Of a stretch of 19,882 nt of DNA, positions 1,659 to 19,048 are shown piece after piece. How positions within the stretch are numbered: the first letter of the stretch is position 1; every line of letters starts with the position of its first letter. The position numbers and the translations under genes were made by a program. The notes under the pieces were generated by a model. It was not told where the DNA came from, did no database searches, and saw only the letters and a program-made list of their open reading frames with translations. This stretch comes from a virus (Duplodnaviria; Heunggongvirae; Uroviricota; Caudoviricetes). The stretch lies in IMG/VR virus record IMGVR_UViG_2548876858_000016; one strand, 5' to 3'.

Positions 1659-1707
1659 CATGGCATAGGTATCGAACTCACCAAAACAATTATAGAGGAT
1701 GAGAAAA

Positions 1708-2690: not shown

Positions 2691-2890
2691 CACAATAAAT
2701 ATGCCCTGAACGTTTATTACGGTTTTATCGCCGGGGATTGTTACAACCTTTATTCACAGATGGAACTCAGTTATGACTTTCCTGAAAAATAAGGCATCGT
2801 ATAAAACTGCCTGCCTCATTGCACAACATGGAGATTCTTATCTTCATATAGCCAACCTGTATTTGCGCAAAGCATATGGGAGATAAATCA

Positions 2891-3079
2891 ATGGAAGAAA
2901 AAGAACAGAACATAACACATGAAAAAGTCAGAGTGTTGTTGACCATTGAAAATGGGAAGGTAATTCACTCAAAACATCTGTTGGATAATGAATTTGTTGG
3001 CTGCACGGATACATTTTTGTGGATGGTAAAACGAGCGGGTTACACTATTATTCCACCAGCAAAGGAGCAAACATTATGA
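2891..3079 (+). CDS. Hypothetical small protein (62 aa)
   Basis: Internal start of track ORF 2876..3079, with GGGAGA SD 7 nt upstream of the ATG at 2891. Stop overlaps the next start (ATGA at 3076-3079). Confidence 0.4.
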   Translation: MEEKEQNITHEKVRVLLTIENGKVIHSKHLLDNEFVGCTDTFLWMVKRAGYTIIPPAKEQTL

Positions 3080-3657: not shown

Positions 3658-3659
3658 AT

Positions 3660-3938
3660 ATGTCAAATCAGAATAAAATTAATGTATTTCAGGTTGAGTC
3701 AAAACATAAAACACCTGTGATAAAACACGTTCGCCGCCATACACGCATCTATACGCCAGAAGAGTTTATGGCAATGCCAATGATAAAGAAACTCATACGA
3801 GACAATCCCGGTCTCGTTGCTATAGATAAAAACAGTGGAGAAATAATGTTATCACGTGAGATTGCCGAAATTTACTGTAGCGTGAATAACAGTAAAAAGT
3901 TGAAAAAGGCAATCAGAAAGATATCAGGAGGAGCATGA
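3660..3938 (+). CDS. Hypothetical basic protein (92 aa)
   Basis: Track ORF, 2 nt after the previous stop; its stop overlaps the next start (ATGA at 3935-3938). Confidence 0.5.
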   Translation: MSNQNKINVFQVESKHKTPVIKHVRRHTRIYTPEEFMAMPMIKKLIRDNPGLVAIDKNSGEIMLSREIAEIYCSVNNSKKLKKAIRKISGGA

Positions 3939-4123
3939 ATATTTATTTCAGAATAGTCATATCACTGGCAATTATCTCATGCATTTACGGATTACTCGTC
4001 CCGTTTCTGATATCAATGAAGGATACGGTAGCGGTAATTTCTGGCTTTGCACTGGCGTTTCTGACCCCGCCATGCATTTATGCCATTTATAAGGGGCTTT
4101 CTTTCACTAAGGATAAAAGATGA
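3935..4123 (+). CDS. Small membrane protein with two hydrophobic segments (62 aa)
   Basis: Track ORF; AGGAGG SD; segments IVISLAIISCIYGLLVPFLI and VAVISGFALAFLTPPCIYAI. Coupled on both sides by ATGA overlaps. Confidence 0.55.
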   Translation: MNIYFRIVISLAIISCIYGLLVPFLISMKDTVAVISGFALAFLTPPCIYAIYKGLSFTKDKR

Positions 4124-4947
4124 AAAAAATTATTTTTTCTTTAGCCATTGTTCTGCCTGCCATTGGCCTTGTCGGTTGTGATCGTGTTGAGCCTGGTAAT
4201 GTGGGCATCAAAGTCAACAAACTTGGCGACGACAAAGGCGTCGGTGAAGTGGTCGGTGTTGGTCGCTACTGGACAGGCTGGAACACTGAAGTTTATATCT
4301 TCCCGACCTTTAAGCAGATGAAGACCTACGATGATCCATTCAGTTTCCAGATGAGCGATGGAACAACCATTGGTTACCACATCGGAGTAGCCTACAAGGT
4401 TGATCCATCCAAAGTTACCACGGTGTTTCAAACCTACCGCAAAGGTGTGGATGACATTACCGACACCGACCTGCGCCAGAAGATAGCAGATGCACTAAAT
4501 CGGCTGGCCAGCAAAATGACCACTGATAAATTTATCGACGGTGGCAAATCTGAACTACTGGATGCAGCTCTAAAAGATATTCAGGCAGAAATGACGCCCA
4601 TCGGTATTCAGGTAATGAGCCTGTCTTATGTAGGTAAACCGGAGTACCCGCCAACCGTTATCGACAGCATTAACGCCAAAGTCACGGCAAACCAGAAAAC
4701 CCTGCAACGCGAGCAGGAAGTAAAACAGCGCGAAGCGGAAGCCAACATGTTGCGTGCGGAGGCTGCCGGACAGGCAGATGCAATTCGCACAAAAGCCCAG
4801 GCCGAAGCCGATGCTATTCGTTTACGCGGTGAAGCTCTGCGCCAGAACCCCGGAGTTATGGAGCTGGAAGCCATCAATAAATGGAACGGCACACTGCCGC
4901 AATACATGACCAGCGGAGCCAATACACCCTTTATCCAGGTTAAATAA
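4120..4947 (+). CDS. SPFH/band-7 (stomatin/HflK-C-like) domain lipoprotein
   Basis: 275-aa ORF; N-terminal signal peptide with lipobox LVGC (MKKIIFSLAIVLPAIGLVGC); central region resembles the SPFH fold; A/E/Q-rich coiled-coil tail (QREAEANMLRAEAAGQADAIRTKAQAEADAIRLRGEA); AAGGA SD 6 nt upstream. Confidence 0.75.
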   Translation: MKKIIFSLAIVLPAIGLVGCDRVEPGNVGIKVNKLGDDKGVGEVVGVGRYWTGWNTEVYIFPTFKQMKTYDDPFSFQMSDGTTIGYHIGVAYKVDPSKVTTVFQTYRKGVDDITDTDLRQKIADALNRLASKMTTDKFIDGGKSELLDAALKDIQAEMTPIGIQVMSLSYVGKPEYPPTVIDSINAKVTANQKTLQREQEVKQREAEANMLRAEAAGQADAIRTKAQAEADAIRLRGEALRQNPGVMELEAINKWNGTLPQYMTSGANTPFIQVK

Positions 4948-4954
4948 CTTATAT

Positions 4955-4973
4955 GCCCGGCAGGCCGCCGGGC
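4955..4973 (+). other. GC-rich hairpin (GCCCGGC-aggcc-GCCGGGC) between the SPFH gene and the next gene, without a U-tract
   Basis: Perfect 7-bp GC stem with 5-nt loop; no T-run follows, so not a classical intrinsic terminator; possible RNA-stability or processing element. Confidence 0.4.
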
Positions 4974-4987
4974 TAAGGGAAAAGCAG

Positions 4988-5347
4988 ATGAACACTCATA
5001 ATACTCAACCGCAAATAATGAACTATGACCCAAATCTGACGTTATGCGGACGCATGGCAAAACAAACCGTTCGATTAATTTTCGGGCTATGGGAATACCG
5101 CGAAACATTCGAAGTCACTGTCGGTGGCAACCTGACCGGACTCGATGTTATCAGTTGCGCTATTGAAAGCCTGTACGAAACGCTGCCTTATGAAGAAGTC
5201 GAGGATGAGCGCGATATCATCGCCACCATTAATATCGGCGGCGTGAAATGCAAGGATGAAAACTTGATCGGAGAGCTATGGCTTGCCGGAATGCTTATCT
5301 CAGCAGAAATTATCAGTATTGAACCCGCTACAAACATACGGCTCTGA
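4988..5347 (+). CDS. Hypothetical protein (119 aa)
   Basis: Track ORF; AAGGG SD 8 nt upstream. Confidence 0.5.
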   Translation: MNTHNTQPQIMNYDPNLTLCGRMAKQTVRLIFGLWEYRETFEVTVGGNLTGLDVISCAIESLYETLPYEEVEDERDIIATINIGGVKCKDENLIGELWLAGMLISAEIISIEPATNIRL

Positions 5348-5378
5348 AGTTCTCACAACTCAGGGAACAGGAGAAAAA

Positions 5379-5621
5379 ATGTTCGCTTTGATTAATCAAG
5401 GGCAACTGTATACCGACAGTGCCGGTTACCCGGTAAAAATTATTCGCTGCATAAATAATATCGTGTTGTACAGAAGAATGGATGGGCGAACACAGTCGGT
5501 AAAAATAAACGATTTTAATGAACTGTTTGAACGGATCGATCACCAGGAATACCGACAAATTCTGGCAGAAACAGAGCAGGAAGCTCATCTGAAAAAATTA
5601 CGAGCCATGAAAAGGAAGTAA
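5379..5621 (+). CDS. Hypothetical small protein (80 aa)
   Basis: Internal ATG of track ORF 5283..5621, with AGGAGA SD ~5 nt upstream. Confidence 0.5.
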   Translation: MFALINQGQLYTDSAGYPVKIIRCINNIVLYRRMDGRTQSVKINDFNELFERIDHQEYRQILAETEQEAHLKKLRAMKRK

Positions 5622-5624
5622 AGA

Positions 5625-5771
5625 ATGAATAAAGCATTTGAACGATGGGTCCACCAGCGTTACGGCAATCGCTATGACCTGACACGAGATGTTGACGGTT
5701 TCTACTGTCGTGAAATTGTGAAACGAATGTTTGAAGTGTGGTGCCACTGCCGTGGGCTGAGTGTTGTGTGA
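5625..5771 (+). CDS. Hypothetical small Cys-containing protein (48 aa), not in ORF track
   Basis: My translation: MNKAFERWVHQRYGNRYDLTRDVDGFYCREIVKRMFEVWCHCRGLSVV, stop TGA at 5769-5771. AGGAAG SD ~8 nt upstream; fills the gap between neighbouring genes in the same orientation. Confidence 0.35.
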   Translation: MNKAFERWVHQRYGNRYDLTRDVDGFYCREIVKRMFEVWCHCRGLSVV

Positions 5772-5779
5772 GGTAATGC

Positions 5780-6016
5780 ATGGGCAATGTGATTCAACTG
5801 GCTCCCAATGAATGGGTTTGTGAAAGCGTTCTAATCGCAATTACCGGGCTCAAACCAGGCACAATTCTTCGGGCCCGGAAAGAATGCTGGATGGTTGGAA
5901 GAGAGTATATTCACGTATCACCAGACGGTAATCCAAAGCCTTCCAGTGAATGTATGTATAACAGAAAAGCAATAGATGCCTGGGTTGCTTCAATGAAAAA
6001 CAAACAACCTGGGTGA
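5780..6016 (+). CDS. Excisionase-like (Xis-type) small DNA-binding protein
   Basis: 78-aa ORF immediately upstream of the integrase; EW...R...W...GREY pattern reminiscent of lambda-type Xis; GAGGT SD. Confidence 0.55.
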   Translation: MGNVIQLAPNEWVCESVLIAITGLKPGTILRARKECWMVGREYIHVSPDGNPKPSSECMYNRKAIDAWVASMKNKQPG

Positions 6017-6071
6017 TTTAATGCCATGAAGTATGTAAGCTCGTATCGCTCTTGGGTGTCTGGAGGTATCA

Positions 6072-7385
6072 ATGGATAAAGTCAAATATCCAACAGGCGT
6101 CGAAAACCACGGTGGCACATTACGCATCTGGTTTAATTTTAAAGGTAAACGTGTCAGGGAAAATCTTGGTGTCCCTGACACTGCCAAGAACAGGAAGATC
6201 GCCGGAGAGCTGCGGACATCTGTATGTTTTGCTATTCGTACAGGAAACTTTGATTACGCTGCGCAGTTCCCTGACTCTCCTAACCTCAAGGCTTTTGGGG
6301 TAAGTAAAAAAGAAATTACGGTGAAGGAACTTGAAGAAAAGTGGCTGGATCTGAAACGAATGGAAATCTCTGCAAATGCATTCAATCGCTATGAATCCGT
6401 TGCAAGAACGATGGTTCCGAAAATTGGAGGCAGCAGACTGGTGTCATCGGTAACTAAAGAGGAATTGCTGTATATCAGGAAAGATTTGCTGACCGGATAT
6501 CAGAATTCAACGAAAAACAAAGCAGCAGCAAAAGGACGGAGCGTCGTTACTGTAAATTATTACATGACGACAATCGCTGGAATGTTTCAGTTTGCTGCAG
6601 ATCACGGTTACCTAGAAGCAAATCCTTTCCAGGGAATTAAGCCTCTTAAAAGAGCCAGGGCAGAGCCAGATCCGCTAACTCGTGACGAATTTATTCGCCT
6701 GATAGATGCTTGCCGACATCAGCAGACGAAAAACCTGTGGTCATTGGCTGTGTACACAGGAATGCGTCACGGTGAACTGGTCTCCCTGGCCTGGGAAGAT
6801 ATCGATCTGAAAGCAGGAACTATTACTATCAGGCGCAATTATACGAAACTCGGTGAGTTCGCTCTACCTAAAACTGAAGCAAGTACAAACAGGGTTGTGC
6901 ATCTTATCCAGCCCGCTATCAGTGTCCTGAAAAATCAGGCTGAAATGACAAGACTGGGTAAGCAGCACCACATCAAGGTTCAACTACGTGAATATGGGCG
7001 TTCAGTGAATCATGAATGTACTTTCGTATTTAACCCCCAGGTGGTTAGAAAAAGCAAACAGGTCGGTTTTATCTACAAGGTAGATTCTATTGGCGACTCA
7101 TGGGAAACAGCCATTAAGCGTGCGGGCATCAGGCACCGGAAAGCATACCAGTCACGACACACTTATGCGTGCTGGTCATTATCTGCCGGAGCAAACCCAA
7201 GCTTCATTGCCAGCCAGATGGGCCATGCAAGTGCCCAGATGGTGTTCAATGTATACGGAGCATGGATGACTGACAGTAATGCAGAACAGATCGCAATGCT
7301 GAATCAGAAGCTGGCAGATTATGTCCCAATGATGTCCCATGGTCACCAAAGTGACACAAGAGACTTATTAAAATCAGTGGGTTAG
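6072..7385 (+). CDS. int: Tyrosine site-specific integrase (phage integrase family)
   Basis: 437-aa ORF; GGAGGT SD; C-terminal catalytic-domain pattern (TGMRHGEL, HxxR-type segment SRHTYA, catalytic Tyr in NVYGAWM); stop lies directly at the junction with the host-gene fragment. Confidence 0.9.
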   Translation: MDKVKYPTGVENHGGTLRIWFNFKGKRVRENLGVPDTAKNRKIAGELRTSVCFAIRTGNFDYAAQFPDSPNLKAFGVSKKEITVKELEEKWLDLKRMEISANAFNRYESVARTMVPKIGGSRLVSSVTKEELLYIRKDLLTGYQNSTKNKAAAKGRSVVTVNYYMTTIAGMFQFAADHGYLEANPFQGIKPLKRARAEPDPLTRDEFIRLIDACRHQQTKNLWSLAVYTGMRHGELVSLAWEDIDLKAGTITIRRNYTKLGEFALPKTEASTNRVVHLIQPAISVLKNQAEMTRLGKQHHIKVQLREYGRSVNHECTFVFNPQVVRKSKQVGFIYKVDSIGDSWETAIKRAGIRHRKAYQSRHTYACWSLSAGANPSFIASQMGHASAQMVFNVYGAWMTDSNAEQIAMLNQKLADYVPMMSHGHQSDTRDLLKSVG

Positions 7386-7399: not shown

Positions 7400-7813
7400 C
7401 ATGTTAACTGTGTGGAGGGTAACACCACGCTTTATGCCCTGCCGAAACCCGAGGTTGTCCTGCGCTGGCGTGAGCAGACCACAGATGACTTCCGCTTCTG
7501 TTTTAAGTTTCCGGCGACTATTTCGCATCAGGCAGCATTACGGCATTGCGATGATTTAGTGACTGAATTTTTGACCCGCATGTCACCGTTGGCTCCGCGC
7601 ATTGGACAATACTGGCTGCAACTGCCTGCCACATTCGGCCCACGGGAGCTGCCTGCGCTTTGGCATTTTCTCGACTCTCTTCCCGGCGAATTTAATTATG
7701 GTGTGGAAGTCCGCCATCCACAGTTTTTCGCCAAAGGGGAAGAGGAACAAACGATTAATCGCGGTTTACATCAGCGCGGCGTTAATCGGGTGATTTTCAT
7801 CAGACACGTTTAA
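7400..7813 (+). pseudogene. yecE: Internal fragment of a DUF72-family host gene (yecE-like), disrupted on both sides
   Basis: Frame encodes ~135 aa (VEGNTTLYALPKPEVVLRWREQTTDDFRFCFKFP...GVEVRHPQFF...) with no plausible start. Assignment to DUF72/yecE is from memory of the family. The fragment sits between the integrase and the serine recombinase. Confidence 0.5.
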
Positions 7814-7914
7814 ATACACCACCTAAAGCGATACAATCTAGGGGTTGGTAGATGATTCGGATGAAGCATCCTCATAACAAGCCCAACTGCTATTAGTTTT
7901 TATGGTGGTAAAGA

Positions 7915-9438
7915 ATGAAACGTGTAATCAGCTACATCAGATTCAGTTCTGAGCGACAAGCCAAAGGCGACTCACTACGCAGACAGTCTAAGATGGTTAA
8001 TGACTGGCTTAAGGCTCATCCTGAGTACTACCTTGACCAAGATTTATCCTTCCGTGATTTGGGGGTGAGTGGGTTCACTGGTAAGCACTTGAAAGGTGGC
8101 TTAGGTGACTTTTTAACCGCTATCGAGAAAGGGCTTGTTAAAGCTGGTGATACGCTCTTGATAGAATCTCTTGACCGTCTGTCACGTCAAGATGTAGACC
8201 AAGCAAGTGAGCTACTCAGAAACATTCTTCGCTCTGGTGTAGATGTGGTCACCTTGTCCGATGGTGAACATTACACACGAGAATCTCTTAAAGACCCGTT
8301 AGCTCTGATTAAAAGCATTCTGATAATGCAGCGGTCGCATGAGGAGAGTTTGAGGAAGTCTGAGCGTATACAAGCTGCATGGAACCGTAAAAAAGAACTC
8401 ATCTCTGAAGGTATCAAGATTTCTAAACGTTGTCCTGCATGGCTTAAGCTTAATGATGACCGTAAAAGCTTCTCTGTAATCCCTGAGAAAGTGGAGACTG
8501 TGAAGAGGTGCTTTCAGCTACGGTTAGAGGGTAAGTCTATCTGGGAGATTGTCAGGACTCTTAATGATGAAGGTCACCAGACGCTTAACCAATATAAAGC
8601 GGGTTCATTTGGTCAAACCTCAGTACAAGACCTTCTGAAAAATCGCTCTGTAATTGGTTACTTCACACCTAAAGGCTGTGAAGAGATAGCTGATTATTAT
8701 CCTGCAATTATAGATGAAACAACATTCTACAAAGTCCAGCAACTATCATATGCTCGTTACGGTAGAAAACCTGCTTCAGATAAGCCAATGGCTGTGAATC
8801 TTTTCAAAGGTGTTATCCGTTGCTCTGAATGTGGTCATGCTCTGATTATCACAGGCTTTAGCGATACAAGAAACGGGATTTATCGCTGTCCCCTTCGTAA
8901 TGAAAACCGTTGTAGTGCTAAAGGGCTGTCACGTAAGCAAACCGATGGTACATTGCTTACCCTGCTATCTCGTCTTGACCGATTTGATAGCGATACGACG
9001 AATACCATCGATACACTGAAGTTACACCGTGAACACATCTCAAGCAATATTGAGAAGCTGGTACAGCTATCACTTGAAATTGAAGATTTGTCAGCTATTA
9101 CCAGCAAGCTAAAACAACTAAAGAATGAGCTATCACAGGTTGATGCGGATATCGAGAAGGAGACACAACGCCTTAAATCTATTGATGTGGGGTGTTTGTC
9201 TGATTGTGACTTGACTACAAAGGCGGGAAGGATTGAAGCACAACTGATAATCAAAAGTGCTGTTAAAGAGGTCGTTTTAAATACTGCTAAACGTCGATGT
9301 AAAGTGACTTTTCACAACGGTAAGGTAATTGACCTACCAATAACAGAAAACCCCTCAGACAACGTTACAGAGGCTATACAGTCGCTTTCTGAAGTCACTG
9401 AGAGGGGTTTAATAGATGTTGATGAGGTTATCATATAG
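7915..9438 (+). CDS. Large serine recombinase (resolvase catalytic domain + recombinase domain + zinc-ribbon)
   Basis: 507-aa ORF; N-terminal YIRFSSERQ with catalytic Ser; Cys cluster CSECGH...YRCPLRNENRC; C-terminal coiled coil. Confidence 0.85.
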   Translation: MKRVISYIRFSSERQAKGDSLRRQSKMVNDWLKAHPEYYLDQDLSFRDLGVSGFTGKHLKGGLGDFLTAIEKGLVKAGDTLLIESLDRLSRQDVDQASELLRNILRSGVDVVTLSDGEHYTRESLKDPLALIKSILIMQRSHEESLRKSERIQAAWNRKKELISEGIKISKRCPAWLKLNDDRKSFSVIPEKVETVKRCFQLRLEGKSIWEIVRTLNDEGHQTLNQYKAGSFGQTSVQDLLKNRSVIGYFTPKGCEEIADYYPAIIDETTFYKVQQLSYARYGRKPASDKPMAVNLFKGVIRCSECGHALIITGFSDTRNGIYRCPLRNENRCSAKGLSRKQTDGTLLTLLSRLDRFDSDTTNTIDTLKLHREHISSNIEKLVQLSLEIEDLSAITSKLKQLKNELSQVDADIEKETQRLKSIDVGCLSDCDLTTKAGRIEAQLIIKSAVKEVVLNTAKRRCKVTFHNGKVIDLPITENPSDNVTEAIQSLSEVTERGLIDVDEVII

Positions 9439-9452: not shown

Positions 9453-10226
9453 TCAGTAGCGCTTATTCGGATTCACCGAAAACTTCTTCAAAGTACTACC
9501 TGTACCAGCATTATTAAGCACCTTTGAAGCTTGCTCATTAGCGGCATCTGAGAAGGTGCTTTTTCCGTTCTTAACTCTGACATTCCTACCACAATTGATA
9601 CGGGCTTGAAGTTGCTCATTAGAAAGTTCACTCGTAGAGCGATTATATAGCTCCTGACACATCAACATACCGTTACCTAAGCTTGTCGTAGTGTTCCCTG
9701 TATTCTTTTTGCTGGTAGCACCACCATCATTTGTAGTAGCTGTCTTTCCAGTAGCAGCCGAAATATCAGTTTGACCCACAATAGCTTTAAAGTTAATTTC
9801 CTGAAAAGTTAGCTGGATTCTTAGACCATTTGAAATACCAACATCTTTAGAGGCTTTAAAGCTTGTAATAATGGAGTCATCAATTTTAATACCATCTTTA
9901 CAGATGACCGAAATAATCTGCTTCTGGTCACGCCAGTTTTCAAGAGTGTCGATGAAGTTCTCCACCAGCTTATTATCTCTTGAGATAAGGATACTACCGG
10001 ATTCACCAACCACAACCACACCACTGATTGAAATAGTTCTTGGTGAACGCATTACATTATCTGTTACAGTCTGCCCTGATTGCATATTTTGAGTGGTCAC
10101 CATCATAGGGCTGTCATATTCCATCTGTTCAGTTGCTGATAAGGTTAAGAAATTATCTGGCTGTCCTTGTAGATGGAAGTAAACACCATCTTTACCAGTG
10201 TAACGAAGCTGACTAGTGTAAATCAT
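9453..10226 (-). CDS. Hypothetical protein (257 aa); possible tail component by position downstream of the tape-measure-like gene
   Basis: Track ORF; GGAGA SD 5 nt upstream of ATG; convergent with the recombinase gene. No domain recognised. Confidence 0.55.
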
Positions 10227-10309
10227 TAAATTCTCCTTTGATTTCAGAGACTTAGTGTATTTTAATCATTTTTAACCAAGCCTTTGATATATAAGTGTTT
10301 TCTCTGTTA

Positions 10310-10376
10310 AGCGTGAGCTACGTAAAAAATAATTTTTGGTGGGTATATCTGTTCAGAAGATTTCACGTAGCACACG
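10310..10376. promoter_or_regulatory. Copy A of a duplicated intergenic regulatory element (AAGCGTG..TACGTAAA..GTGGGTAT..CAGA..TTTC..ACGTAGCACAC)
   Basis: Shares ordered conserved blocks with 12501-12594; arms CGTGAGCTACGT / ACGTAGCACACG form an 11/12 inverted repeat; lies upstream of gene 9453-10226. Confidence 0.5.
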
Positions 10377-10389
10377 GATATATAAGAAA

Positions 10390-12480
10390 TCATTCTTCCT
10401 CTGGATAGCTTGAACTTAAGAGCATATCCTGCGTGAACTGGTCATTAGCTGATTGATTGAAAGTAAAGAAAGCTGGTTCATCCGGTCTAACAATTGCTTC
10501 ACCAGTGATATTAACTGACAAGGGCTTCTTAGCTTCTACTGTTAAAGCATCAACCTTGCGTGATAGCTCACTAATAGTCATTGCAAGTTGAGCATTACTA
10601 TTAACCATGTCACCCGTAATAGCTGGTGGAGTTGATTGTGTGTTATTTACGAAGTTATTCATCGGTTCTTGGGAGTTAGCAATTTTATCAGCTGCACTAC
10701 TAAACCAACCTTTAACATCGTCCATAGTGAACACTGGTTTAAGTCCAGACTCTTTAGCTAGCTCTGGTAATTTAGCTTGTGCTTCCATTCGTTCAGGTGT
10801 AGAAGCTAATCTTTCATAACCTGCATAGATAGCACTACCAGCTAATAGCATATTCATAGGGTTTAGTCTTGATGGTTTCCCATTCTTTCTATTCACGTTA
10901 TCCGCTGTGGTATCAGCGACCTGACCTAATCTTGTGATAGCAGTCATAAGCCCGTAAATACTTCTGGTTACACCAACAACTTTATTCACAGCAATAACAC
11001 CAGCCAAGACTTTTAAACTATTAATCAAGCCAGAACCTAAAGCATCAACTACTTTCTTTTGCTCATCGGTTAAACCACGATAAGCTAATGTCACCTCATC
11101 GAAGAATGCTCTTACCCTGTAGCTGATATCAGTCAATGAATCGACACCATGCGACATATCGCTCATCAAGCTACCAAGAGATTCACCAAGACTTTTACCA
11201 CTTCCACCAAGAGCGTTTAAAAGCGTTGTTAGGCTTCTTGTGAAATCTTGAAGACCATTTTCAGAACCTCTGAAGATACTATCAAGCGTGGTATTCCAAG
11301 AGTTTTTCAAGTTCCCTAGTTGTGCCTGTGTACTTTCTGAAATGGCTTTCCAGCCACCTTTAGCGGTGATTTGTCTATTCAGTTCCTGAGTGACCTTCTG
11401 AAGAGTATCGGCAGATTTTAAAGCCCCCTTCTTCATGGCATCAAATAATTCCTGTTCACTCTTTCCGGTTGCTTTAGCGAATACCTGAACCATACCAGGA
11501 ACAGCTTCAGCCAGTTGCCCCTTAAGCTCTTCAGCCATAATCTGACCCTTACCAGCCATCTGTGATAATGCTGTCAGTGCTCGCTTAATCTCTTCTTCAC
11601 TTCTCCCCATCAGACGAGCATAGCCAATCATATTTTTAAAAAGTTCTTCAGAACCTTGAATACCCATAGACTCTTTAGCTGAAGCACCAAAACCAGCAAA
11701 CTGTGATTGCAGTTCAGCGATATCTAAACCCGTTGTTTGAGCTAATGACTTTGTGAACTCTTTTACCTGACCTGCATCTTTATCAAATACGAAATCAATT
11801 GAACGCTCAGCACTTGCACGCTGTAAACCAATTTCCATAATCTTCTGATAACTGGCTAATACAGCCTGCATTGAGATAAATGCACCTGCTGTTTTAACTG
11901 CTGCTGAAGACAGGTTATCAAGACTATTAGCTGCTCTGTCAGCATTAATGCTGGTGGATGTATGACCTCTGGCTTTAGCAATTGCTTCTCTGACTGAAGC
12001 GTTTAACTGAGCTAACTTCTCATTGAATTTTGAAGAATCCATTGACCCGGCTTTAGCAGATAGCCCGTAAAACTGAGATTTGATGTATTTCTGCAAAATA
12101 GGGTCAAAGCCTTTTAGCTTAGACATATTAGCTGAGTAAGCCGCTGTGATTGCTCTGTTGCCGCTAATTAGTGGCTGTCTTGGCTGTCTAAGTGGCTTTA
12201 AAGTATCCTCAATTTCCGTTTTAATCTTAAACGCTCTAGTGTTTTTAAGACGCTGCTCAATCTTGTCAAAGGTCTTATTAAACTTCCTTTCAAGTTGCCC
12301 TAAAGAACTTGTCAGATTGCTGTCAAGTTGCTTGGTATCGACCTTAAACGCTCTATTCAAATTGCGTTCAATTCTTTGTGCTGACTGCAAAGCTGCCTTT
12401 TCAACTCTTTGCAGTCCCTTAATAACGTTTTCATTGAAGCCTAGCTCAACGATAAAACTATCAACTGTGAATTTGCTCAT
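10390..12480 (-). CDS. Phage tail tape-measure-like protein
   Basis: 696-aa ORF; central region (GSEELFKNMIGYARLMGRSEEEIKRALTALSQMAGKGQIMAEELKGQLAEAVPGMVQVFAKATGKSEQELFDAMKKG) matches the tape-measure core pattern; coiled-coil N-terminus; GAGGTG SD. Confidence 0.7.
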   Translation of the reverse strand: MSKFTVDSFIVELGFNENVIKGLQRVEKAALQSAQRIERNLNRAFKVDTKQLDSNLTSSLGQLERKFNKTFDKIEQRLKNTRAFKIKTEIEDTLKPLRQPRQPLISGNRAITAAYSANMSKLKGFDPILQKYIKSQFYGLSAKAGSMDSSKFNEKLAQLNASVREAIAKARGHTSTSINADRAANSLDNLSSAAVKTAGAFISMQAVLASYQKIMEIGLQRASAERSIDFVFDKDAGQVKEFTKSLAQTTGLDIAELQSQFAGFGASAKESMGIQGSEELFKNMIGYARLMGRSEEEIKRALTALSQMAGKGQIMAEELKGQLAEAVPGMVQVFAKATGKSEQELFDAMKKGALKSADTLQKVTQELNRQITAKGGWKAISESTQAQLGNLKNSWNTTLDSIFRGSENGLQDFTRSLTTLLNALGGSGKSLGESLGSLMSDMSHGVDSLTDISYRVRAFFDEVTLAYRGLTDEQKKVVDALGSGLINSLKVLAGVIAVNKVVGVTRSIYGLMTAITRLGQVADTTADNVNRKNGKPSRLNPMNMLLAGSAIYAGYERLASTPERMEAQAKLPELAKESGLKPVFTMDDVKGWFSSAADKIANSQEPMNNFVNNTQSTPPAITGDMVNSNAQLAMTISELSRKVDALTVEAKKPLSVNITGEAIVRPDEPAFFTFNQSANDQFTQDMLLSSSYPEEE

Positions 12481-12500
12481 TCATATTTTTCACCTCTTTA

Positions 12501-12594
12501 AGCGTGTTGTACGTAAATTCTATTTTTCAGTGTGGGTATTAGCTTTACAGATTTCATGAGGATAATTCTTATCCGAATCATCACGTAGCACACA
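12501..12594. promoter_or_regulatory. Copy B of the duplicated intergenic regulatory element, upstream of the tape-measure-like gene
   Basis: Same conserved blocks as 10310-10376 with a ~27-bp insertion; contains CACGTAGCACACAGGAT (12582-12598). Confidence 0.5.
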
Positions 12595-12622
12595 GGATTC
12601 GATAGAAGACTATCTCATATAC

Positions 12623-12663
12623 AAAAAAGGGAGAGCTACCGATGTCACTCGATAATCTCTCCC
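12623..12663 (-). terminator. Candidate intrinsic terminator on the minus strand (GGGAGAG / CTCTCCC stem, 21-nt loop, U6)
   Basis: 7-bp GC-rich stem at 12629-12635 / 12657-12663; on the minus-strand transcript it is followed by UUUUUU (plus-strand A6 at 12623-12628). Loop is long for a terminator. Confidence 0.4.
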
Positions 12664-12688
12664 GTTGATTTTTACCCAACCAATCTTT

Positions 12689-12892
12689 TTACCTAACCAG
12701 ATAATAATTACCATCTTCACCGACAATCTGACAATCACTTGGTAATTTATCAAGACACCATTTAGCGATTCTTCTGATTCTATTCTTTTGCTTAGAGGTG
12801 GATGATTTGATTCGTTTTGGTTTGTTGGGTTGTTCTTTCAATCGTTCACTAATTGCTTTAATAAGCTCATAGCGTTCTGTTAAATCAATCAT
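12689..12892 (-). CDS. Hypothetical small basic protein (67 aa)
   Basis: Track ORF; strong AGGAGGTG SD; Lys/Arg-rich centre (KPKRIKSSTSKQKNRIRRIAK). Confidence 0.5.
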   Translation of the reverse strand: MIDLTERYELIKAISERLKEQPNKPKRIKSSTSKQKNRIRRIAKWCLDKLPSDCQIVGEDGNYYLVR

Positions 12893-12916
12893 TCACCACC
12901 TCCTTTTAATTCATAG

Positions 12917-13657
12917 TTAAAGTGCCTTTGCATATTTCTGAGAAATCTTCACTAACTGCTCAATATCAGCCTGCATAGCAATTTTCTTCTGTGATTCATA
13001 TTCACTAACAAGCTCTTTCATAGTATCAAGCTCTTTTTTAAGCTTTTGCTTTAACTTATCCAGCTTATCGGAGTAATGCTTAGTCAGATTAGCTTCAGCT
13101 AACTGAAGAATCTCTTCATCTGTTTTGTTAGTCATCAGGATATATGAGCCTGTACCACGTGAAGCTTGTCTGACATCCATTAATCGAAAACCGTCAGGAA
13201 TACTTTGAAGCACTTTTGGAACATTCTCTCTTGCTGTACCGAAACCATTGTTGTAATTTCCTTCGTAATAGATAAACGGGTTTGTCTTAAGCTCATATTC
13301 AATATCATATTCTGAAGGTTTCTGAGTTTCTTCGAAGTTTTTGACAACATCATAAGCATTATCAAGCTTGATGCGCTGCTCTTTTAGTAGTGGATAGTAC
13401 TTCCTCTCAAGTGCAATCAGAGCTTCTGTCTTGCAAACATCAGTCATTTCCAGAGGCTCAGGATTGATATATTCAAGATTATTGGCTGGAACAATCTTTC
13501 GCAGCCTTTCTTTTTTGGCCTCTTCATCTGCAAGCTTGGCAATAATTTTGTGATAAGGTTTCATATGTGCATACTCATCTCCTTCATCAGTAAAATGCAA
13601 ATCATATGCACAAGGTTTTCTATCAACAATCGCTTCATGTTCATCACGGATAGACAT
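12917..13657 (-). CDS. Hypothetical protein (246 aa), charged with coiled-coil C-terminus
   Basis: Track ORF; GAGGAAAA SD ~9 nt upstream. Confidence 0.55.
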   Translation of the reverse strand: MSIRDEHEAIVDRKPCAYDLHFTDEGDEYAHMKPYHKIIAKLADEEAKKERLRKIVPANNLEYINPEPLEMTDVCKTEALIALERKYYPLLKEQRIKLDNAYDVVKNFEETQKPSEYDIEYELKTNPFIYYEGNYNNGFGTARENVPKVLQSIPDGFRLMDVRQASRGTGSYILMTNKTDEEILQLAEANLTKHYSDKLDKLKQKLKKELDTMKELVSEYESQKKIAMQADIEQLVKISQKYAKAL

Positions 13658-13774: not shown

Positions 13775-14130
13775 GAAAAAGCCCTAGATAACTAAAACGC
13801 TATAAAGGGCTAAGGTGAAGAAATTAAAGAACATCCAAAGGATTCAATAACGAATGAACAAAGACTTTTTGAGATAGCCTATCTAGTGTGGGCTAAATAG
13901 GCCATGACGAAAAGCATTGCACCTTTCCAACTCAGAATAACTATCATTGATGTAGAATGATTAATAGTTTAATTCAGGAAGAGTTGCTCTCCCCTATTAC
14001 CATCATCTCATGCTTAAGGTTATTTGTCAACAGCTTTTAACAGATTGATAACATCAATTCTTATTTACTGTGTTACCCACCCAGCAACCAACAAATAAGC
14101 CAAGCAACGTCCAAGCAATTATTAAGCCCA

Positions 14131-14454
14131 TTAGTGAACCCTCACGGAATCCGTAACCAAAATATTATCGCTGTACAGGATTGTCACAGCACCTTTCAAA
14201 AATCGCTCTGGGGAAATACTGTATTTGTTCGTTTGCTCAATAACCAATCTTTTCATATTACTGTCTGTAATTGGTAACATCATTCGAGGCTCGTTAAACT
14301 CCACCGAGTGAATAAAGTCAGAGATGCTTTCCGCATTATCAGCCATTAACTCTAACAACTTATCAAAGTCAATGCTAACACCTACATCAGTGAAAGCCTG
14401 AATCATCATGGCGGTGTCGGTATCAATAAAAATCTGTAGTGGGAAATTATTCAT
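14131..14454 (-). CDS. Hypothetical protein (107 aa)
   Basis: Internal Met of track ORF 14131..14565 (MNNFPLQIFIDTDTAMM...), with AGGA SD 9 nt upstream. Confidence 0.5.
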   Translation of the reverse strand: MNNFPLQIFIDTDTAMMIQAFTDVGVSIDFDKLLELMADNAESISDFIHSVEFNEPRMMLPITDSNMKRLVIEQTNKYSISPERFLKGAVTILYSDNILVTDSVRVH

Positions 14455-14592
14455 TTTTAAAATCCTATAAAAACACATCTTAAATCTGCCAAAATAGCCA
14501 TTCTGAGGCCAGTAACCATGCGGGTTACAGAGGGAGTGAGACACCTTAGTAATAGGGTAGCTCATCTTTGAGTCTCACTCATTCTCACAGAC

Positions 14593-14979
14593 TTACACAG
14601 ACGCTTTAATCTTGTAGTATTGACTACGTGATAAGCCGTATTTCTCAGAAATATAACTTTGTGATTGTCCTTTGGTGATTGCATCAATGATTAAATCTTT
14701 ATCGTATCTGTTACCGTTGGCTTTGTGCTTGTCACTATTTTTAATAGAGTTGAAGTTCTCCATTAATTCAATGGCGTCTTTAAGGTCGCTTTCGTAAGCA
14801 TAATCAAAACCTCTGATAAACTCGAAATCACCATTATCTTTTTGTGCTTCAGCCCAGATATCAAATCTTGAGGCTAATTGCTGGTGGGTAAACTTGGGCT
14901 TATTGGTTTGTGTTACGTCTTTCCAGACCTTACCGTCAAATCTTACCAAATGGTCACGATGCTTATAAAAATCATACAT
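14593..14979 (-). CDS. Hypothetical protein with C-terminal HTH (128 aa)
   Basis: Track ORF; GGAGG SD; C-terminal ITKGQSQSYISEKYGLSRSQYYKIK resembles a resolvase/Hin-type or small-terminase-type HTH. Start overlaps the upstream stop (TAATG). Confidence 0.55.
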   Translation of the reverse strand: MYDFYKHRDHLVRFDGKVWKDVTQTNKPKFTHQQLASRFDIWAEAQKDNGDFEFIRGFDYAYESDLKDAIELMENFNSIKNSDKHKANGNRYDKDLIIDAITKGQSQSYISEKYGLSRSQYYKIKASV

Positions 14980-15257
14980 TAAACCTCCATTGCTAATTTG
15001 TGAATTTTGATACTTAGTAATCTTGCTAAATCCAGTCCAAAGGCATTTAGAGCCTTCAGACTATCAAGGTCATCTTGCTTAATCCTGATATGGTGTCTTG
15101 CTGCCTCTAAACGACTATTAAGCAAATCCTGCTCGTTAATATCACGGTTAATTGCAAGCTTCATCACTGCTGAGTGTGGCAGACCTGTAATGTTTTTGAT
15201 TCGGTTAAGTTCGTCAAAGGCTGTCTTTGTAACTCTGGTTAAAGTGTGCTTAGTCAT
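14979..15257 (-). CDS. Hypothetical protein (92 aa)
   Basis: Track ORF; tightly packed between neighbours in one minus-strand operon. Confidence 0.5.
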   Translation of the reverse strand: MTKHTLTRVTKTAFDELNRIKNITGLPHSAVMKLAINRDINEQDLLNSRLEAARHHIRIKQDDLDSLKALNAFGLDLARLLSIKIHKLAMEV

Positions 15258-15260
15258 TAT

Positions 15261-15824
15261 TTAAAATCCTTCTGCTTGTGCGTACACGTCAAATTCAAAG
15301 TCTGGCTCACTGCTTGTAAGACTGATATTACCAACGGTAATATGATGCTCGACAATACCAATTAACTTTGCGCACATCACAGCAAGTAATGCGCAATAGG
15401 CATCGCTTGGTAACTCATGGCTTAACCTGGTTGCCTGACGCTGGAGATGGTTTGTCACGGTAGCTGAGTTAATTTCATCAAGATTCTTTAGAAGATAAAA
15501 CAATTTCTTGTTGTATTTTGGGTGCCCCTCACTTCTGCAAAATCCGATAAGAATGTCGTCAAGCTTGCTCGGTAATTGCTCGTAGCTGTCAAAGTTAGCC
15601 AGATAATTCTTGATGCTGTTCTTTGTTGTTTTGCGTACTGACATATAACGACTCCTCGGTGTAATTGCCCGAATTACTTCGTCAATGCCTTTGCGTTCTG
15701 CTCTGGTGAACTTGGGTGCTTCGTGGCTGGTGGGGGAGTTTGTGTAGCTGTAGGAGTTGTAGGAGTTGTATCTGTTACGTTGTCTCGATGCCTGAAGCAT
15801 CGCTCTAAATTCTCTGTCGTTCAT
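15261..15824 (-). CDS. Hypothetical protein (187 aa) with in-frame 9-bp tandem repeat
   Basis: Track ORF; AAGGA SD 11 nt upstream; GTAGGAGTT x2.3 at 15750-15770 encodes NSYNSYSY. Confidence 0.55.
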   Translation of the reverse strand: MNDREFRAMLQASRQRNRYNSYNSYSYTNSPTSHEAPKFTRAERKGIDEVIRAITPRSRYMSVRKTTKNSIKNYLANFDSYEQLPSKLDDILIGFCRSEGHPKYNKKLFYLLKNLDEINSATVTNHLQRQATRLSHELPSDAYCALLAVMCAKLIGIVEHHITVGNISLTSSEPDFEFDVYAQAEGF

Positions 15825-15910
15825 TCATAAGCTAGTCCTTATAATTGTTAATTCTCTGTTAACTTATATAGACAATACTAGCATTTTCAAAGACTAATGT
15901 CAAGCATTTT

Positions 15911-15940
15911 TTAACATTTCATTAACATCTGTGGTATAAT
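15911..15940 (+). promoter_or_regulatory. Candidate sigma70 promoter with extended -10 (TTAACA-18-TGgTATAAT)
   Basis: TATAAT at 15935-15940 preceded by TG at 15932-15933; TTAACA at 15911-15916. Confidence 0.5.
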
Positions 15941-16122
15941 GGTTCTATGGGGAGAGTAAAATATAAAGGCGTGGCTATGAGAGTGGTCATATGGTTATTG
16001 CATTGCACACAGACCTCTTCAATCGCTCTGTAACGAGTTAAATGGCCTCTTCAGGTCAACATATAAGGTCAGGTACTTTTTTGTGTCAGAATGCGATTGA
16101 GAGCGTCTTACAAGGAAAACTA

Positions 16123-16299
16123 ATGGTAAATCTCCCTCCTGAGCTGGGGTCACCTGATGTATGGGCTGGTGGAGGTGTTGGGCTGATTGCAGGTCTGCTA
16201 CTTCGCTACGTCCTCGTCAGAGTGCTTGTTGTCTTTAAACTGTTCGGTCGTACATGGACGCTTGACCTTAAGGATAACGACCACACAGAACCCCGTTAA
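16123..16299 (+). CDS. Candidate small single-TM protein (58 aa)
   Basis: Internal ATG of track ORF 16042..16299, with AAGGA SD 6 nt upstream; hydrophobic segment VGLIAGLLLRYVLVRVLVVF; downstream of the 15911-15940 promoter. Confidence 0.35.
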   Translation: MVNLPPELGSPDVWAGGGVGLIAGLLLRYVLVRVLVVFKLFGRTWTLDLKDNDHTEPR

Positions 16300-16763: not shown

Positions 16764-17432
16764 TCAGCCCAACCTTTGAACAATCCTGTAAGTGGTGCTT
16801 AGAGGTATTCTTAGCGATTCTGCGATGCTCTTGATGGGTTGCCCTTGGTCATACATTTTAATCAACCTGTCAAGCGTCTGTGCATCGTGCATATGAGGTC
16901 TTCCACGTAAACCACCCCTGTTAACCACGGCAAGTAAAAGCATTGTGTCACCACAATAGATTGTCTGGGTAACTTCAACTTTCGGTTTGCGGGGTGTGTT
17001 CCTGTATATCAAAACGCAACTTGGAAACGGTGAGCGCACTACAACACCTCTCTTTCCTGCTGGTGGAAGGTATTTGACTGCTCGGTGTAACGTTCGAATC
17101 TCATGCAGGAAGGGGTTTGTATATACACACCGAAGCCAGTAAGTTGTCTTTGACCTGAGCGGAACCAGACATACACACACATCAGCTTCAGGGGCTTTTA
17201 AGAGGAACTTTTCAGCCATGCTAAACGGCGGGTTAACGAAGACCCGTTCACCAACCCATGATTGATTGTGAATATCATCGGTGAACCGTGGCAACAATGC
17301 GTCATACTCAGTTGCAGCACCATCTAGACTGAAGTTAAACTCACGATGCAGGTTATGAAATAAACGATACGGTGTACGCCAGTCATCAGAACCACCATGA
17401 TAACGACCAACATTGATTATTGGATGCGACAC
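16764..17432 (-). CDS. Phage Dam-family N6-adenine DNA methyltransferase fused to a C-terminal resolvase/Hin-type HTH
   Basis: 222-aa ORF with GTG start (AGAGGGG SD ~10 nt upstream). N-terminal ~150 aa shows DDWRTP...F.F.LDGAA...NPPFS...SPFPS, which I recognise as the phage Dam MTase pattern; C-terminal GRPHMHDAQTLDRLIKMYDQGQPIKSIAESLRIPLSTTYRIVQRLG resembles a serine-recombinase HTH. Confidence 0.7.
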   Translation of the reverse strand: MSHPIINVGRYHGGSDDWRTPYRLFHNLHREFNFSLDGAATEYDALLPRFTDDIHNQSWVGERVFVNPPFSMAEKFLLKAPEADVCVCLVPLRSKTTYWLRCVYTNPFLHEIRTLHRAVKYLPPAGKRGVVVRSPFPSCVLIYRNTPRKPKVEVTQTIYCGDTMLLLAVVNRGGLRGRPHMHDAQTLDRLIKMYDQGQPIKSIAESLRIPLSTTYRIVQRLG

Positions 17433-17470
17433 AAGCGAAGCGCCCCTCTTAGTATATTTCTTAATCGTCT

Positions 17471-17517
17471 CTTTAGCATTTAGTGCTTTTTGTTAAGTTT
17501 AGCACTTTTTGCTAAAG
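17471..17517. promoter_or_regulatory. Inverted pair of the 17-bp dyad motif, upstream of the Dam-HTH gene; candidate operator
   Basis: CTTTAGCATTTAGTGCT (17471-17487) and reverse complement of CTTTAGCAAAAAGTGCT (17501-17517), 13-bp spacer; 40-85 bp upstream of the GTG start; a minus-strand TATACT -10 candidate lies at 17451-17456. Confidence 0.45.
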
Positions 17518-17944
17518 ACAAAAGCATTGACAAAATGGTAGGATTGTTCACATAGCCCTTACTTAACAGACTCTTAAGAGCTTTGAAACAGCCTGTTTAA
17601 CAAGGTCACTACCTCTGGTCTTATCGTTCCCTTCTTTCTAGGTAGTCATCTGTTAAGAACTTTTCAGTTTTATTCTTAAGATAATTGTTAAGATGATACT
17701 CTCCCTTCGGGTTATATCGTATCTCTCCTCCCGTTAAATATCCCTTCACAGTCAGACTAAATAACACCTGTGTAGTTTCTTGGTAGAATCTTTCAAGGTA
17801 ACTTAACTCTGAGTTTATGAAGTTGACCTATGAGATAGACTCTACCGAATCTGTTAGTCAATTGTTGCTTAGGTGCTGCTAAGGCTTACTTAGTGGGAAG
17901 AGAGGGAATATGTGACCATAGGAACCCCTCCTGTTAAAAGCTTC

Positions 17945-17972
17945 TTGACGTTACTATCTCGATATGTATAAT
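17945..17972 (+). promoter_or_regulatory. Near-consensus sigma70 promoter (TTGACG-16-TATAAT)
   Basis: TTGACG at 17945-17950, 16-bp spacer, TATAAT at 17967-17972; no credible ORF downstream. Confidence 0.5.
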
Positions 17973-17979
17973 GGCTTAC

Positions 17980-18148
17980 TGTACTAGGTTTACTTCCAAA
18001 GCAACCAAGCACACTCTCTATGGCAGTGTCCAGCGAGGTAAGGTCGTGTAGGGTGCGGTTCGGTGGGGTAAGGTTTGGTGCGGTATGGGTGGATTGTCGT
18101 AGCCACGTTAAAAATCGACTTATAGGGACTCTTTCGGGAGTCCTTTTT
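17980..18148 (+). ncRNA. Candidate ~170-nt small RNA bounded by promoter and intrinsic terminator; G-rich internal tandem repeat
   Basis: Starts ~7 nt after the -10 and ends at the 18125-18148 terminator; contains GGTAAGGT...GGTGCGGT twice (18046-18095); the only overlapping ORF (18020-18298) reads through the terminator and looks non-coding. Confidence 0.4.
18125..18148 (+). terminator. Rho-independent terminator (GGACTC-tttcgg-GAGTCC + T5)
   Basis: 6-bp stem at 18126-18131 / 18138-18143, T-run 18144-18148; plus-strand specific. Confidence 0.6.
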
Positions 18149-18298
18149 AGTTTGTATAAAATCTGTACAGTAACTTTTCAGAGTCTGAAAATTTTTATAA
18201 ATATCGTAGTAACCCCTCTACATTCCCCTTCACCGATAATTTTCAAAAATATCTACACTCAATTGATGGCTGTTAAGTACCCCAGATTCACGATATAG

Positions 18299-18308
18299 CC
18301 CCCCCCCC
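18299..18308. repeat. Homopolymeric C10 tract
   Basis: Ten consecutive C in intergenic DNA, immediately upstream of a promoter-like TTGCAA-16-TATAAC (18310-18337). Confidence 0.9.
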
Positions 18309-19048
18309 TTTGCAAAAGCAGTTAAAATATCTATAACCAACCATTGACTTTCTTCATGATATCTGTTTAGCCCCACCTCAATAAGCCATCATCACACATC
18401 AAAGCATCTATCAAGAAGGTTTAACCTATCAATAGCTGTAACATTTTATAGTTCTGTGAAGTCCTATCCAGTTTTCTCTGTAACAGCTACAAACTTCTGT
18501 GACCTTATGTGTCAATGACTTATAAGACATGCTCTCAAGGTGCTGTATAGCCTCTTATCAGCCAATACACAAAACCCTTATAAATCAGTACTGATATGTA
18601 TACAGTATGTTTTTAACATAATAGCTGTTTTACGCACTAATAAGCACCTACGTAGATTCTGTATAGAGATTAAGATGTCTCTAAGTGATTTTTTAAGAGG
18701 AGATACGAAGGAACTATAACCATCACTTCATAACTTTCACGTAGGTAACTATTAAGTAGGTTGATAGTCACTTTGAGGGAATATTGATAGTGACCAACTG
18801 CATAGACACCGTTATATAGCCCTGTATATAGCACTATATGTAGTGTCTGGAGAGGGACGACTAACACGATATAGTTTACCCTGAAAAGAGGATTTACAGA
18901 TTCTCTATACATTTCAATAAGTTATGATAAAAAGGGGCTATGTCGATACTGTATAGAATCTGTGTAGGATTGCATAGATACTTGGAAAAATACCGTTAAA
19001 TTGCATAGGTACTAACCTGTTTATGTCCTGTTATTTACAGGCATAGCA

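Follow-up and report, generated by a model that had tools for sequence, protein, structure and literature searches.

We analysed a 19,882-nt stretch of DNA from IMG/VR record IMGVR_UViG_2548876858_000016 (hereafter the window; all positions are window coordinates). It comes from the E. coli chromosome at the yecE (DUF72) locus, where two distinct mobile elements lie. The second of these, an island of ~12.1 kb, carries genes for a tape measure protein (TMP) and a tube initiator (TI) that are diverged copies of adjacent tail genes of the strictly lytic Felix O1-like myoviruses (Ounavirinae). We are highly confident that both genes are functional, that they were captured from Felix O1-like phages, and that they reside on a widespread, discrete integrative island. 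The island itself is probably a satellite of these phages, packaged by them and travelling in chimeric tails. It would work like a PLE, one of the serine-recombinase islands of V. cholerae that parasitise the lytic myovirus ICP1 (2026, Nature, PMC12987554), but is not classed as one. A broader proposal, about as likely as not, is that it represents an unrecognised and widespread family of Enterobacteriaceae satellites specific to Felix O1-like phages that swaps TMP and TI, copies the terminus signal of the helper for packaging, possibly makes a (GGUNN)n small RNA in imitation of a phage repeat element, and has reinvented the PLE strategy independently.

The TMP gene (10390–12480, minus strand) encodes 696 amino acids (aa). 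Its product matches TMP profiles in Pfam (TMP_3, PF20155; E = 9.7e-20, 71.5 bits against a cut-off of 41), NCBIfam (TIGR02675; E = 1.8e-13, 50.6 bits against a cut-off of 21.35) and PHROG (phrog_4036, ‘tail length tape measure protein’; E = 2.3e-83), and in the PDB it matches chain 9ndy_F (‘TMP gp017’, 742 aa, Felixounavirus; E = 2.2e-69). Island TMPs align end to end with the phage TMP (742 aa) at 28–33 per cent identity; the window’s copy is 29 per cent identical overall and 46 aa shorter. The parts kept from the phage are the first ~45 aa, the central TMP_3 domain, and the C-terminal LLSSSYPEEE. The full-length TMP matches and the closest TI matches are Ounavirinae phages. No sequenced phage in the phage collection carries an island-type TMP, every match there being below 60 per cent identity. 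At the nucleotide level, blastn aligns 12346–12520 with positions 43216–43391 of phage wV8. This match reaches 40 nt beyond the TMP start codon. Those 40 nt (12481–12520, minus strand), immediately upstream of the TMP start, are non-coding and derive from the 3' end of wV8 gp72, the phage chaperone gene, so this part of the phage genome was acquired in a single contiguous piece.

The TI gene (9453–10226, minus strand) encodes a Dit-like protein of 257 aa. It is homologous along its full length to PDB 9ndy_A (‘Tube initiator protein gp018’; E = 3.9e-114), and it also matches Pfam Dit_like (PF21821; E = 2.5e-19, 70.1 bits against a cut-off of 24.2) and phrog_3721 (E = 1.6e-127). Along 9654–10197 the DNA is 81.6 per cent identical to wV8. 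Within the phage collection the gene is found in Felix O1-like phages only, with 82–86 per cent nucleotide identity over ~500 nt and ~72 per cent protein identity, and island TIs are 65–82 per cent identical to the TI of wV8. The phage TI gene always lies directly behind the TMP gene, and the gene order in the island is identical to that in wV8 and Bas63. The N-terminal tube-like domain of TI is phage-like (82 per cent identical to wV8 gp74 in the window and 72–96 per cent across islands); the C-terminal extension, whose phage counterpart spans the baseplate, is of an island-specific type (42–58 per cent identical). An N-terminal domain up to 96 per cent identical to that of a present-day phage implies ongoing exchange with phages.

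In the phage, TMP and TI jointly start the tail tube on the baseplate hub and set its length. PDB entry 9ndy appears to belong to the cryo-electron microscopy study of Felixounavirus Bas63, in which TMP and TI bear the same names. In Bas63, a TI hexamer adapts the C3 baseplate hub to the C6 tail tube, and the final 25 residues of TMP dock on the hub and spike (PMC12609058). The island proteins keep the interface parts, namely the C-terminus and N-terminal 45 aa of TMP and the tube-like domain of TI. In addition, a 544-bp locus common to the virulent phage vB_EcoM_DE7 and two E. coli chromosomes, where PHASTER found no prophage, was reported without interpretation by its authors (PMC11069274); this locus is most likely the TI gene of the island.

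The preliminary description of the window had reported a 696-aa tape-measure-like ORF (open reading frame) with a single 257-aa ORF downstream, and both observations hold. It had also placed the tape-measure gene next to a serine recombinase; the recombinase is present, but the adjacency is loose, as the 257-aa gene lies in between. That it recognised no major tail protein, chaperone pair, capsid, or terminase gene agrees with our Pfam and PHROG scans, in which no sheath, tube, chaperone, capsid, portal, or terminase was recognisable anywhere in the window. Relatives in other genomes have the same core gene order, with no head genes and no further tail genes, and they allowed us to inspect the element beyond 19882. 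The island ends ~90 bp past the window, so that the part outside the window contains no head or tail module either. Comparison with these relatives puts the end of the window right at the start codon of the island’s final gene.

At its left end the island begins at ~7798, directly after a 5' fragment of yecE that forms the attL flank (7412–7797, plus strand; Pfam DUF72, E = 1.6e-31). These limits come from comparing the junctions of five loci, plus the attP junction described below. The island integrase is a large serine recombinase of 507 aa (7915–9438, plus strand), with matches to Resolvase (4e-20), Recombinase (9e-16), Zn_ribbon_recom (5e-7), and phrog_95 ‘integrase’ (1e-78). We place the attL crossover at ~7797/7798 (GGGTGATTTT|CATCAGACACG), and the left island end (7798–7840) and the right end form an imperfect inverted repeat (GGTGGTGTATTTAAACGT vs GGAGGTGTATTTAGACCT). 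Together, attL, attR, and the observed attP fit a crossover in GATTTT. Strains ZH177, CFSAN061772, and E8 each carry the island as the sole element within a split yecE, and its core genes come in the same order in all three. Islands without insertion sequence (IS) elements span 11.5–12.3 kb; that of ZH177 is ~13.4 kb because an IS5 element lies inside it. One variant (L008, 1–11834) is flanked by tonB and has a different serine recombinase of 506 aa, 34 per cent identical to that of the window. The same variant carries an HNH-AP2 endonuclease that is 34 per cent identical to wV8 gp113.

The first element in the window (1–7385) is the regulatory and integrase end of a lambdoid prophage, with a LexA-like repressor, an SPFH protein, a DUF5406 protein, and a tyrosine integrase (6072–7385). 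Its tandem arrangement with the island in yecE recurs in several human isolates, e.g. FDAARGOS_1252. We considered whether TMP might be part of this prophage and rejected the idea: the prophage ends at 7385 with its own tyrosine integrase, the yecE fragment separates the two elements, and the island occurs alone in many genomes.

We searched metagenome contigs for attP, defined as the predicted right end, a short spacer, and the left end. The junction was found in one contig, L024 (ERZ1090866 NODE_760, 11,473 bp), at 2936–2981. Here the island is circularly permuted, and towards its centre the two ends meet directly with no intervening yecE. This contig is direct evidence of an attP junction in nature. 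Its island variant also has four TGACATTTTGTCAC iterons adjoining a gene for a 154-aa HTH_36 (Rep-like) protein, a combination present in this one variant only.

The island contains 1.6 kb without genes (17433–19048), and three pieces of this region are related to non-coding DNA of Ounavirinae. The helper-side reference point is phage vB_EcoM_E9, which was reported with direct terminal repeats (DTRs; PMC11737134). The E9 record has a 580-bp repeat at both ends (ending at 580), and this repeat maps to 14351–14953 of wV8. The corresponding part of wV8 (13885–15560) is a 1.7-kb gene-free, repeat-rich stretch. Because the counterpart of the E9 DTR is found there, the physical ends of Felix O1-like genomes lie in that stretch, though many database records open at rIIA or terL.

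The first piece (18161–18345, minus strand) is a homologue of the right boundary of the helper DTR and its adjacent sequence, and was found with a five-island profile. This profile, built from islands only, matches wV8 solely at 14895–15059 (165 nt, E = 1.9e-18) and matches E9 at 521–685 (E = 2.2e-17); both matches straddle the right boundary of the DTR. From this sequence similarity we regard 18161–18345 as a candidate packaging or terminase-recognition signal copied from the helper. If it mimics the packaging site, a candidate island terminus falls at ~18250 (GGGTACTT|AACAG). The piece includes motif B (18170–18201). A second piece, the 37-nt motif A (17597–17633, minus strand), has its matches inside the helper DTR (wV8 14617–14653, E9 266–302), with a score of 41.0 bits compared to a maximum of 33.1 in 200 shuffles. 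None of the 200 dinucleotide shuffles scored as high as motif A or motif B, and the two motifs hardly vary from island to island. The island and phage regions are both enriched in TGTTAAG repeats.

The third piece lies in a candidate small RNA gene (17945–18145, plus strand), which consists of a sigma70-like promoter (17945–17972), about eleven GGTNN pentamers (18033–18119), and an intrinsic terminator (18124–18145). The 85-nt pentamer element (NNACC when read on the minus strand) has matches in 146 phage records; by name all of these are Felix O1-like (Ounavirinae), and among the matches listed it lies in non-coding DNA or under short hypothetical ORFs. Four copies occur in wV8 (including 59305–59521 and 60704–60925), where they lie in leader sequences of genes on the minus strand, close to the ligase and polymerase genes. 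Among islands the 5-nt periodicity is kept, not the exact sequence; around the element, on the plus strand, the promoter-like site is conserved in position and the terminator is invariant. As these two signals bracket the pentamers, an RNA of ~170 nt (17978–18150) is suggested. Such periodicity would suit a binding site for a ring-shaped or multimeric protein, and the element could be an RNA decoy or part of a replication origin. A search of the island against Rfam returned no credible family.

Sequence evolution indicates that the tail genes are maintained. TMP is full-length (688–699 aa) in 119 of the 120 best-scoring database clusters (86–100 per cent identity), the remaining one being annotated as partial, and island TMPs in the loci we fetched range from 679 to 725 aa. 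We calculated the ratio of non-synonymous to synonymous substitution rates (dN/dS) among five islands, excluding from the ranges the nearly identical pair formed by the window and L001. The ratio is 0.25–0.35 for TMP (dS 0.37–0.79), 0.07–0.16 for TI (dS 0.3–0.9), 0.135–0.171 for the recombinase (dS 0.07–0.33), and 0.22–0.78 for dam (dS <0.09). Synonymous divergence in TMP and TI is thus several-fold above that in the recombinase or dam. Among islands whose recombinases are 91–95 per cent identical, TMPs are only 47–80 per cent identical and the 246-aa proteins encoded upstream of TMP 23–70 per cent, and the C-terminal part of TMP is visibly mosaic between islands. The module made up of the 246-aa and 67-aa proteins, TMP, and TI is under purifying selection, yet it is the hypervariable part of the island. 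This combination would be the pattern expected of an arms race or of repeated exchange with phages.

The TMP and TI module is present in 482 of 5426 complete E. coli genomes (~9 per cent), and it is chromosomal every time. Protein searches also found it in Shigella, E. albertii, E. fergusonii, Salmonella, and Citrobacter. A scan of species representatives returned three loci only, with no distant relatives outside Escherichia and Citrobacter. The island backbone is absent from the phage and plasmid collections, and we found no case of the island deposited as a phage, plasmid, or virome contig. Matches in IMG/VR are prophage-style predictions from seven isolate genomes and one metagenome. Literature searches turned up neither a satellite of Felix O1 or Felixounavirus nor a serine-recombinase island in yecE.

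These data favour the suggestion in the preliminary description of a satellite-type element that keeps selected tail functions and redirects helper tails, for which PLEs offer a precedent (PMC12987554). In the model we propose, a Felix O1-like phage would infect a cell carrying the island, which would then excise and replicate. The helper terminase would package the island by way of the copied terminal-repeat boundary. Island TMP and TI would take the place of the phage proteins in tails that are otherwise helper-made, and these tails would be ~5–7 nm shorter; at 0.15 nm per residue, the 46-aa TMP difference amounts to about 7 nm. The swap would lower the yield of infectious helper, possibly aided by the 246-aa and 67-aa proteins and the repeat-rich small RNA.

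Several points weigh against this model. Induction, replication, packaging, tail incorporation, and transfer by a Felix O1-like phage are steps that we infer from sequence. A 12-kb genome would badly underfill a capsid of ~87 kb, unless it is packaged as multimers or an unknown protein remodels the capsid. No capsid-size redirection gene, small terminase, or tail assembly chaperone (TAC) was recognised in the island by Pfam, PHROG, or structure and profile comparisons. A replication module is likewise unrecognisable in the window’s own island, where the AlphaFold2 (AF2) model of the 187-aa backbone protein reaches a pLDDT of 47.9, too low for a structure search. The left boundary of the DTR has no significant match (score 16, compared to a shuffle maximum of 19.5), so that the similarity covers the right boundary only, and motifs A and B stand in a different order in the island than in the phage. 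The attP junction comes from a single metagenome contig at 6x coverage and could derive from a tandem array instead. Last, IS elements disrupt the island TMP in a minority of genomes, which means that the module is not kept everywhere. These elements are IS2, IS3, IS1, and IS100/IS21-like (E. coli hits H11–H15, H153–H159, and H163; Citrobacter L021).

The strongest rival is a defence-only island, in which TMP and TI are dominant-negative decoys that would enter the baseplate hubs of an invading phage and disturb tail assembly or DNA delivery, protecting the population in the manner of Tai or Rta without packaging or transfer. A poison-subunit arms race would leave just the pattern we see, with conserved phage-interface parts and a diverged, hypervariable remainder. 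Interference with tail assembly is also a documented defence (PMC11364771; Rta, PMC12987554), and the island has a slot for variable cargo at its right end. We nevertheless consider this reading unlikely. It leaves unexplained the homologue of the phage genome terminus and the other phage cis elements, the excised attP form, and the spread over five genera, all hosts of these phages, without conjugation genes. Nor is there a PADLOC family match: the cargo has none, and there are just two matches at chance level (E = 0.006 and 0.0007). Because defence and satellite transfer coexist in PLEs, the defence-only reading is more a subset of the satellite model than an alternative to it.

We give far less credence to a non-parasitic role, with TMP co-opted as a membrane-active effector or toxin or as part of another nanomachine. 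Most island genes have no assigned function, and one report describes TMP-related effectors of contractile injection systems (PMC13277306). The island, however, has no contractile-injection, secretion, or tailocin genes by Pfam or PHROG. Its TMP is kept with the cognate TI, both proteins retain the surfaces that contact the helper hub and tube proteins, and the near-identity of some TI N-terminal domains to present-day phage also speaks against co-option. The last candidate, the decayed prophage remnant that the preliminary description had offered as its other option, with TMP and its neighbour as non-functional leftovers, would suit an integrase beside two tail genes and hypothetical ORFs, as well as the IS insertions in some TMPs, but it is refuted by the purifying selection on a 2.1-kb ORF that stays full-length (dN/dS 0.07–0.35 in the tail genes), the strictly lytic donor lineage with no sequenced phage bearing an island-type TMP, the clean att ends and shared core order of IS-free islands in distant strains, and the lack of head or tail genes in the rest of the element.

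The satellite model has its closest parallel in the PLEs. Their TMP, TAC, and BhuB are 20, 20, and 41 per cent identical to the ICP1 proteins, and the resulting chimeric tails are 10 nm shorter, with all other parts made by the phage; PLE11 adds Rta, an inhibitor of the phage TMP (PMC12987554). PLEs were called the first satellite family known to manipulate tail assembly, and putative tmp genes were listed only in Vibrio PLE-like elements and cf-PICIs (PMC12987554, Extended Data Fig. 10). Our island resembles PLEs in being small, chromosomal, and equipped with a large serine recombinase, and in having a strictly lytic, contractile-tailed helper, which in our case we infer. Each has its own diverged TMP (20 per cent identity in PLEs, 29–33 per cent in the island) along with a hub-proximal protein (BhuB at 41 per cent, TI at 65–82 per cent), and the satellite TMP is shorter than that of the helper by 95 aa in PLE11 and 46 aa here. 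PLEs also make a conserved regulatory small RNA, SviR, for which the island has a candidate only. On the other hand, the island occurs in Enterobacteriaceae with an Ounavirinae helper, measures ~12 kb rather than ~18 kb, and is inserted in yecE, whereas PLEs occupy a V. cholerae repeat. In its sequence we recognised neither a TAC or RepA nor a TcaP-like capsid remodeller or an Rta homologue. TI is much closer to its helper counterpart than BhuB is, and the island is described here from its sequence.

Other satellites share single features with the island. SaPIbov5 and P4 copy the cos sites of their helpers, and are thus likewise satellites with a copy of a helper packaging site. They differ in remodelling capsids rather than tails, in their temperate helpers and tyrosine recombinases, and in copying a cos site where the island has a DTR boundary. 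SaPIbov5 is cos-type and carries Ccm, a homologue of the helper capsid protein (PMC8569155). Tai and Rta are carried on mobile elements or satellites, and as with the island, fewer properly tailed infectious helper virions are expected (PMC11364771; PMC12987554); they are dedicated inhibitors, however, not homologues of tail components, and neither was identified in the island. The EPIPs of Mycolicibacterium and the cf-PICIs are satellites with a TMP gene, a putative one in the cf-PICIs, and EPIPs also have a serine integrase (PMC12822802; PMC12987554). Both differ from the island, which has TMP and TI only, in their capsid, scaffold, connector, or small-terminase genes and temperate helpers. 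The PICMIs of Vibrionaceae are minimal satellites of virulent phages with no recognisable capsid-remodelling genes, and their concatemer packaging is one way round the size problem; they have reduced gene content, and helper-derived structural genes go unmentioned in the abstract of that report (PMC10803314). Among the island ORFs, Pfam and PHROG searches found none of the hallmarks of PICIs, cf-PICIs, or P4 (tyrosine integrase with alpA and pri-rep or terS; capsid, portal, or connector genes) and no P4-like psu, sid, delta, or alpha.

If the model is correct, E. coli would gain its first satellite of a virulent phage, and with it a tractable model system. Chimeric-tail piracy, so far demonstrated only in one family of satellites of a single cholera phage (2026), would be a general strategy. 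Felix O1-like phages are a standard for Salmonella typing and are used or considered for biocontrol and therapy. An island in about one in eleven E. coli genomes could cut the yield of these phages, alter their tails, and spread via lysates, which would bear on host-range prediction and the choice of production strains. Hundreds of genomes label island genes as ‘tape measure protein’, ‘phage baseplate protein’, or ‘transposase’ without context. The island would likewise account for the published recombination signal that links a virulent phage with ‘prophage-free’ E. coli loci (PMC11069274).

Upstream of TMP there are, as the preliminary description had noted, a terminator-like hairpin and small proteins in place of a tail operon. 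The hairpin (GGGAGAG...CTCTCCC, followed by T6; 12629–12663, minus strand) resembles an intrinsic terminator and lies between TMP and the 67-aa ORF; its 21-nt loop is the reason that the automatic terminator scan missed it. The 67-aa protein (12689–12892, minus strand) is basic and, by sequence comparison, occurs as two sequence types within the variable tail module. Its profile matches nothing among PDB sequences. The 246-aa protein (12917–13657, minus strand) has a coiled coil and a small beta domain in its AF2 model (pLDDT 71.5), and its sequence family is restricted to these islands and hypervariable (23–95 per cent identity). Neither protein belongs to a Pfam, PHROG, NCBIfam, or PADLOC family. 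The 246-aa protein is a candidate chaperone or inhibitor. It has no PDB sequence match, and Foldseek searches of the model against PDB and BFVD gave nothing below E = 0.07, with no TAC structure among the matches listed. Aligning the family to the wV8 chaperone gp71 with hhalign gave a probability of 0.5 per cent. No TAC family was found next to TMP in Pfam, PHROG, or NCBIfam, though a highly divergent TAC may have escaped these searches. RefSeq/PGAP calls many members of the 246-aa family ‘transposase’, a label with no Pfam, NCBIfam, or structural support.

Between TMP and TI, sequence comparison revealed a conserved element of ~75 nt with a long-range inverted repeat (GTGTGCTACGT ... ACGTAGCTCAC; 10302–10375, minus strand). 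It stands upstream of TI in all five islands compared, whereas the phage TMP and TI genes abut without a spacer. A second copy lies upstream of TMP (12493–12593, minus strand) in some island types only. The element may be a regulatory RNA structure or an operator. We also considered a phage late promoter ahead of TMP and TI on account of a shared ACGTRGCT motif, and dropped the idea because ACGTRGCT is no general promoter in wV8.

A backbone operon of four island-restricted ORFs (14131–15824, minus strand) encodes proteins of 187, 92, 128, and 144 aa, the 128-aa protein having a C-terminal helix-turn-helix (HTH). The 187-aa family was found in islands only, and the 144- and 128-aa proteins match nothing among PDB sequences. 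A Dam-type N6-adenine DNA methyltransferase with a C-terminal resolvase-type HTH follows (16764–17432, minus strand; PF05869, 1.1e-12; HTH_7, 1.3e-6; phrog_111, 5e-24). In L024, ~100 nt upstream of dam resemble an intergenic part of wV8 (23815–23937, E = 1e-4). A cluster of CTATACAG-like repeats (18363–18967, minus strand) is a possible iteron or operator array; there are thirty such repeats in the window compared to 14.2 ± 4.3 expected, and they are clustered here.

The right-end cargo position (19049–19882, minus strand) is variable and in the window encodes a membrane-anchored protein of 277 aa, in which two membrane helices are predicted and a long segment is coiled coil. In L005, L006, and L008 the same slot holds a small invertase-like serine recombinase, an unrelated 221-aa protein without a family, or nothing. 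The cargo in L024 is a small serine recombinase, and that contig terminates in Nextera adapter sequence. Such cargo may be accessory defence or exclusion genes. The backbone operon has a sigma70-like promoter at 15875–15903. In the area of 15875–15940 and 16042–16299 (plus strand), two strong sigma70-like promoters (10/12 and 11/12 matches) stand back to back, one directed at the backbone operon and one at a short ORF on the plus strand that has a hydrophobic segment and is annotated in relatives as 58 aa. The layout resembles a genetic switch or a small toxin.

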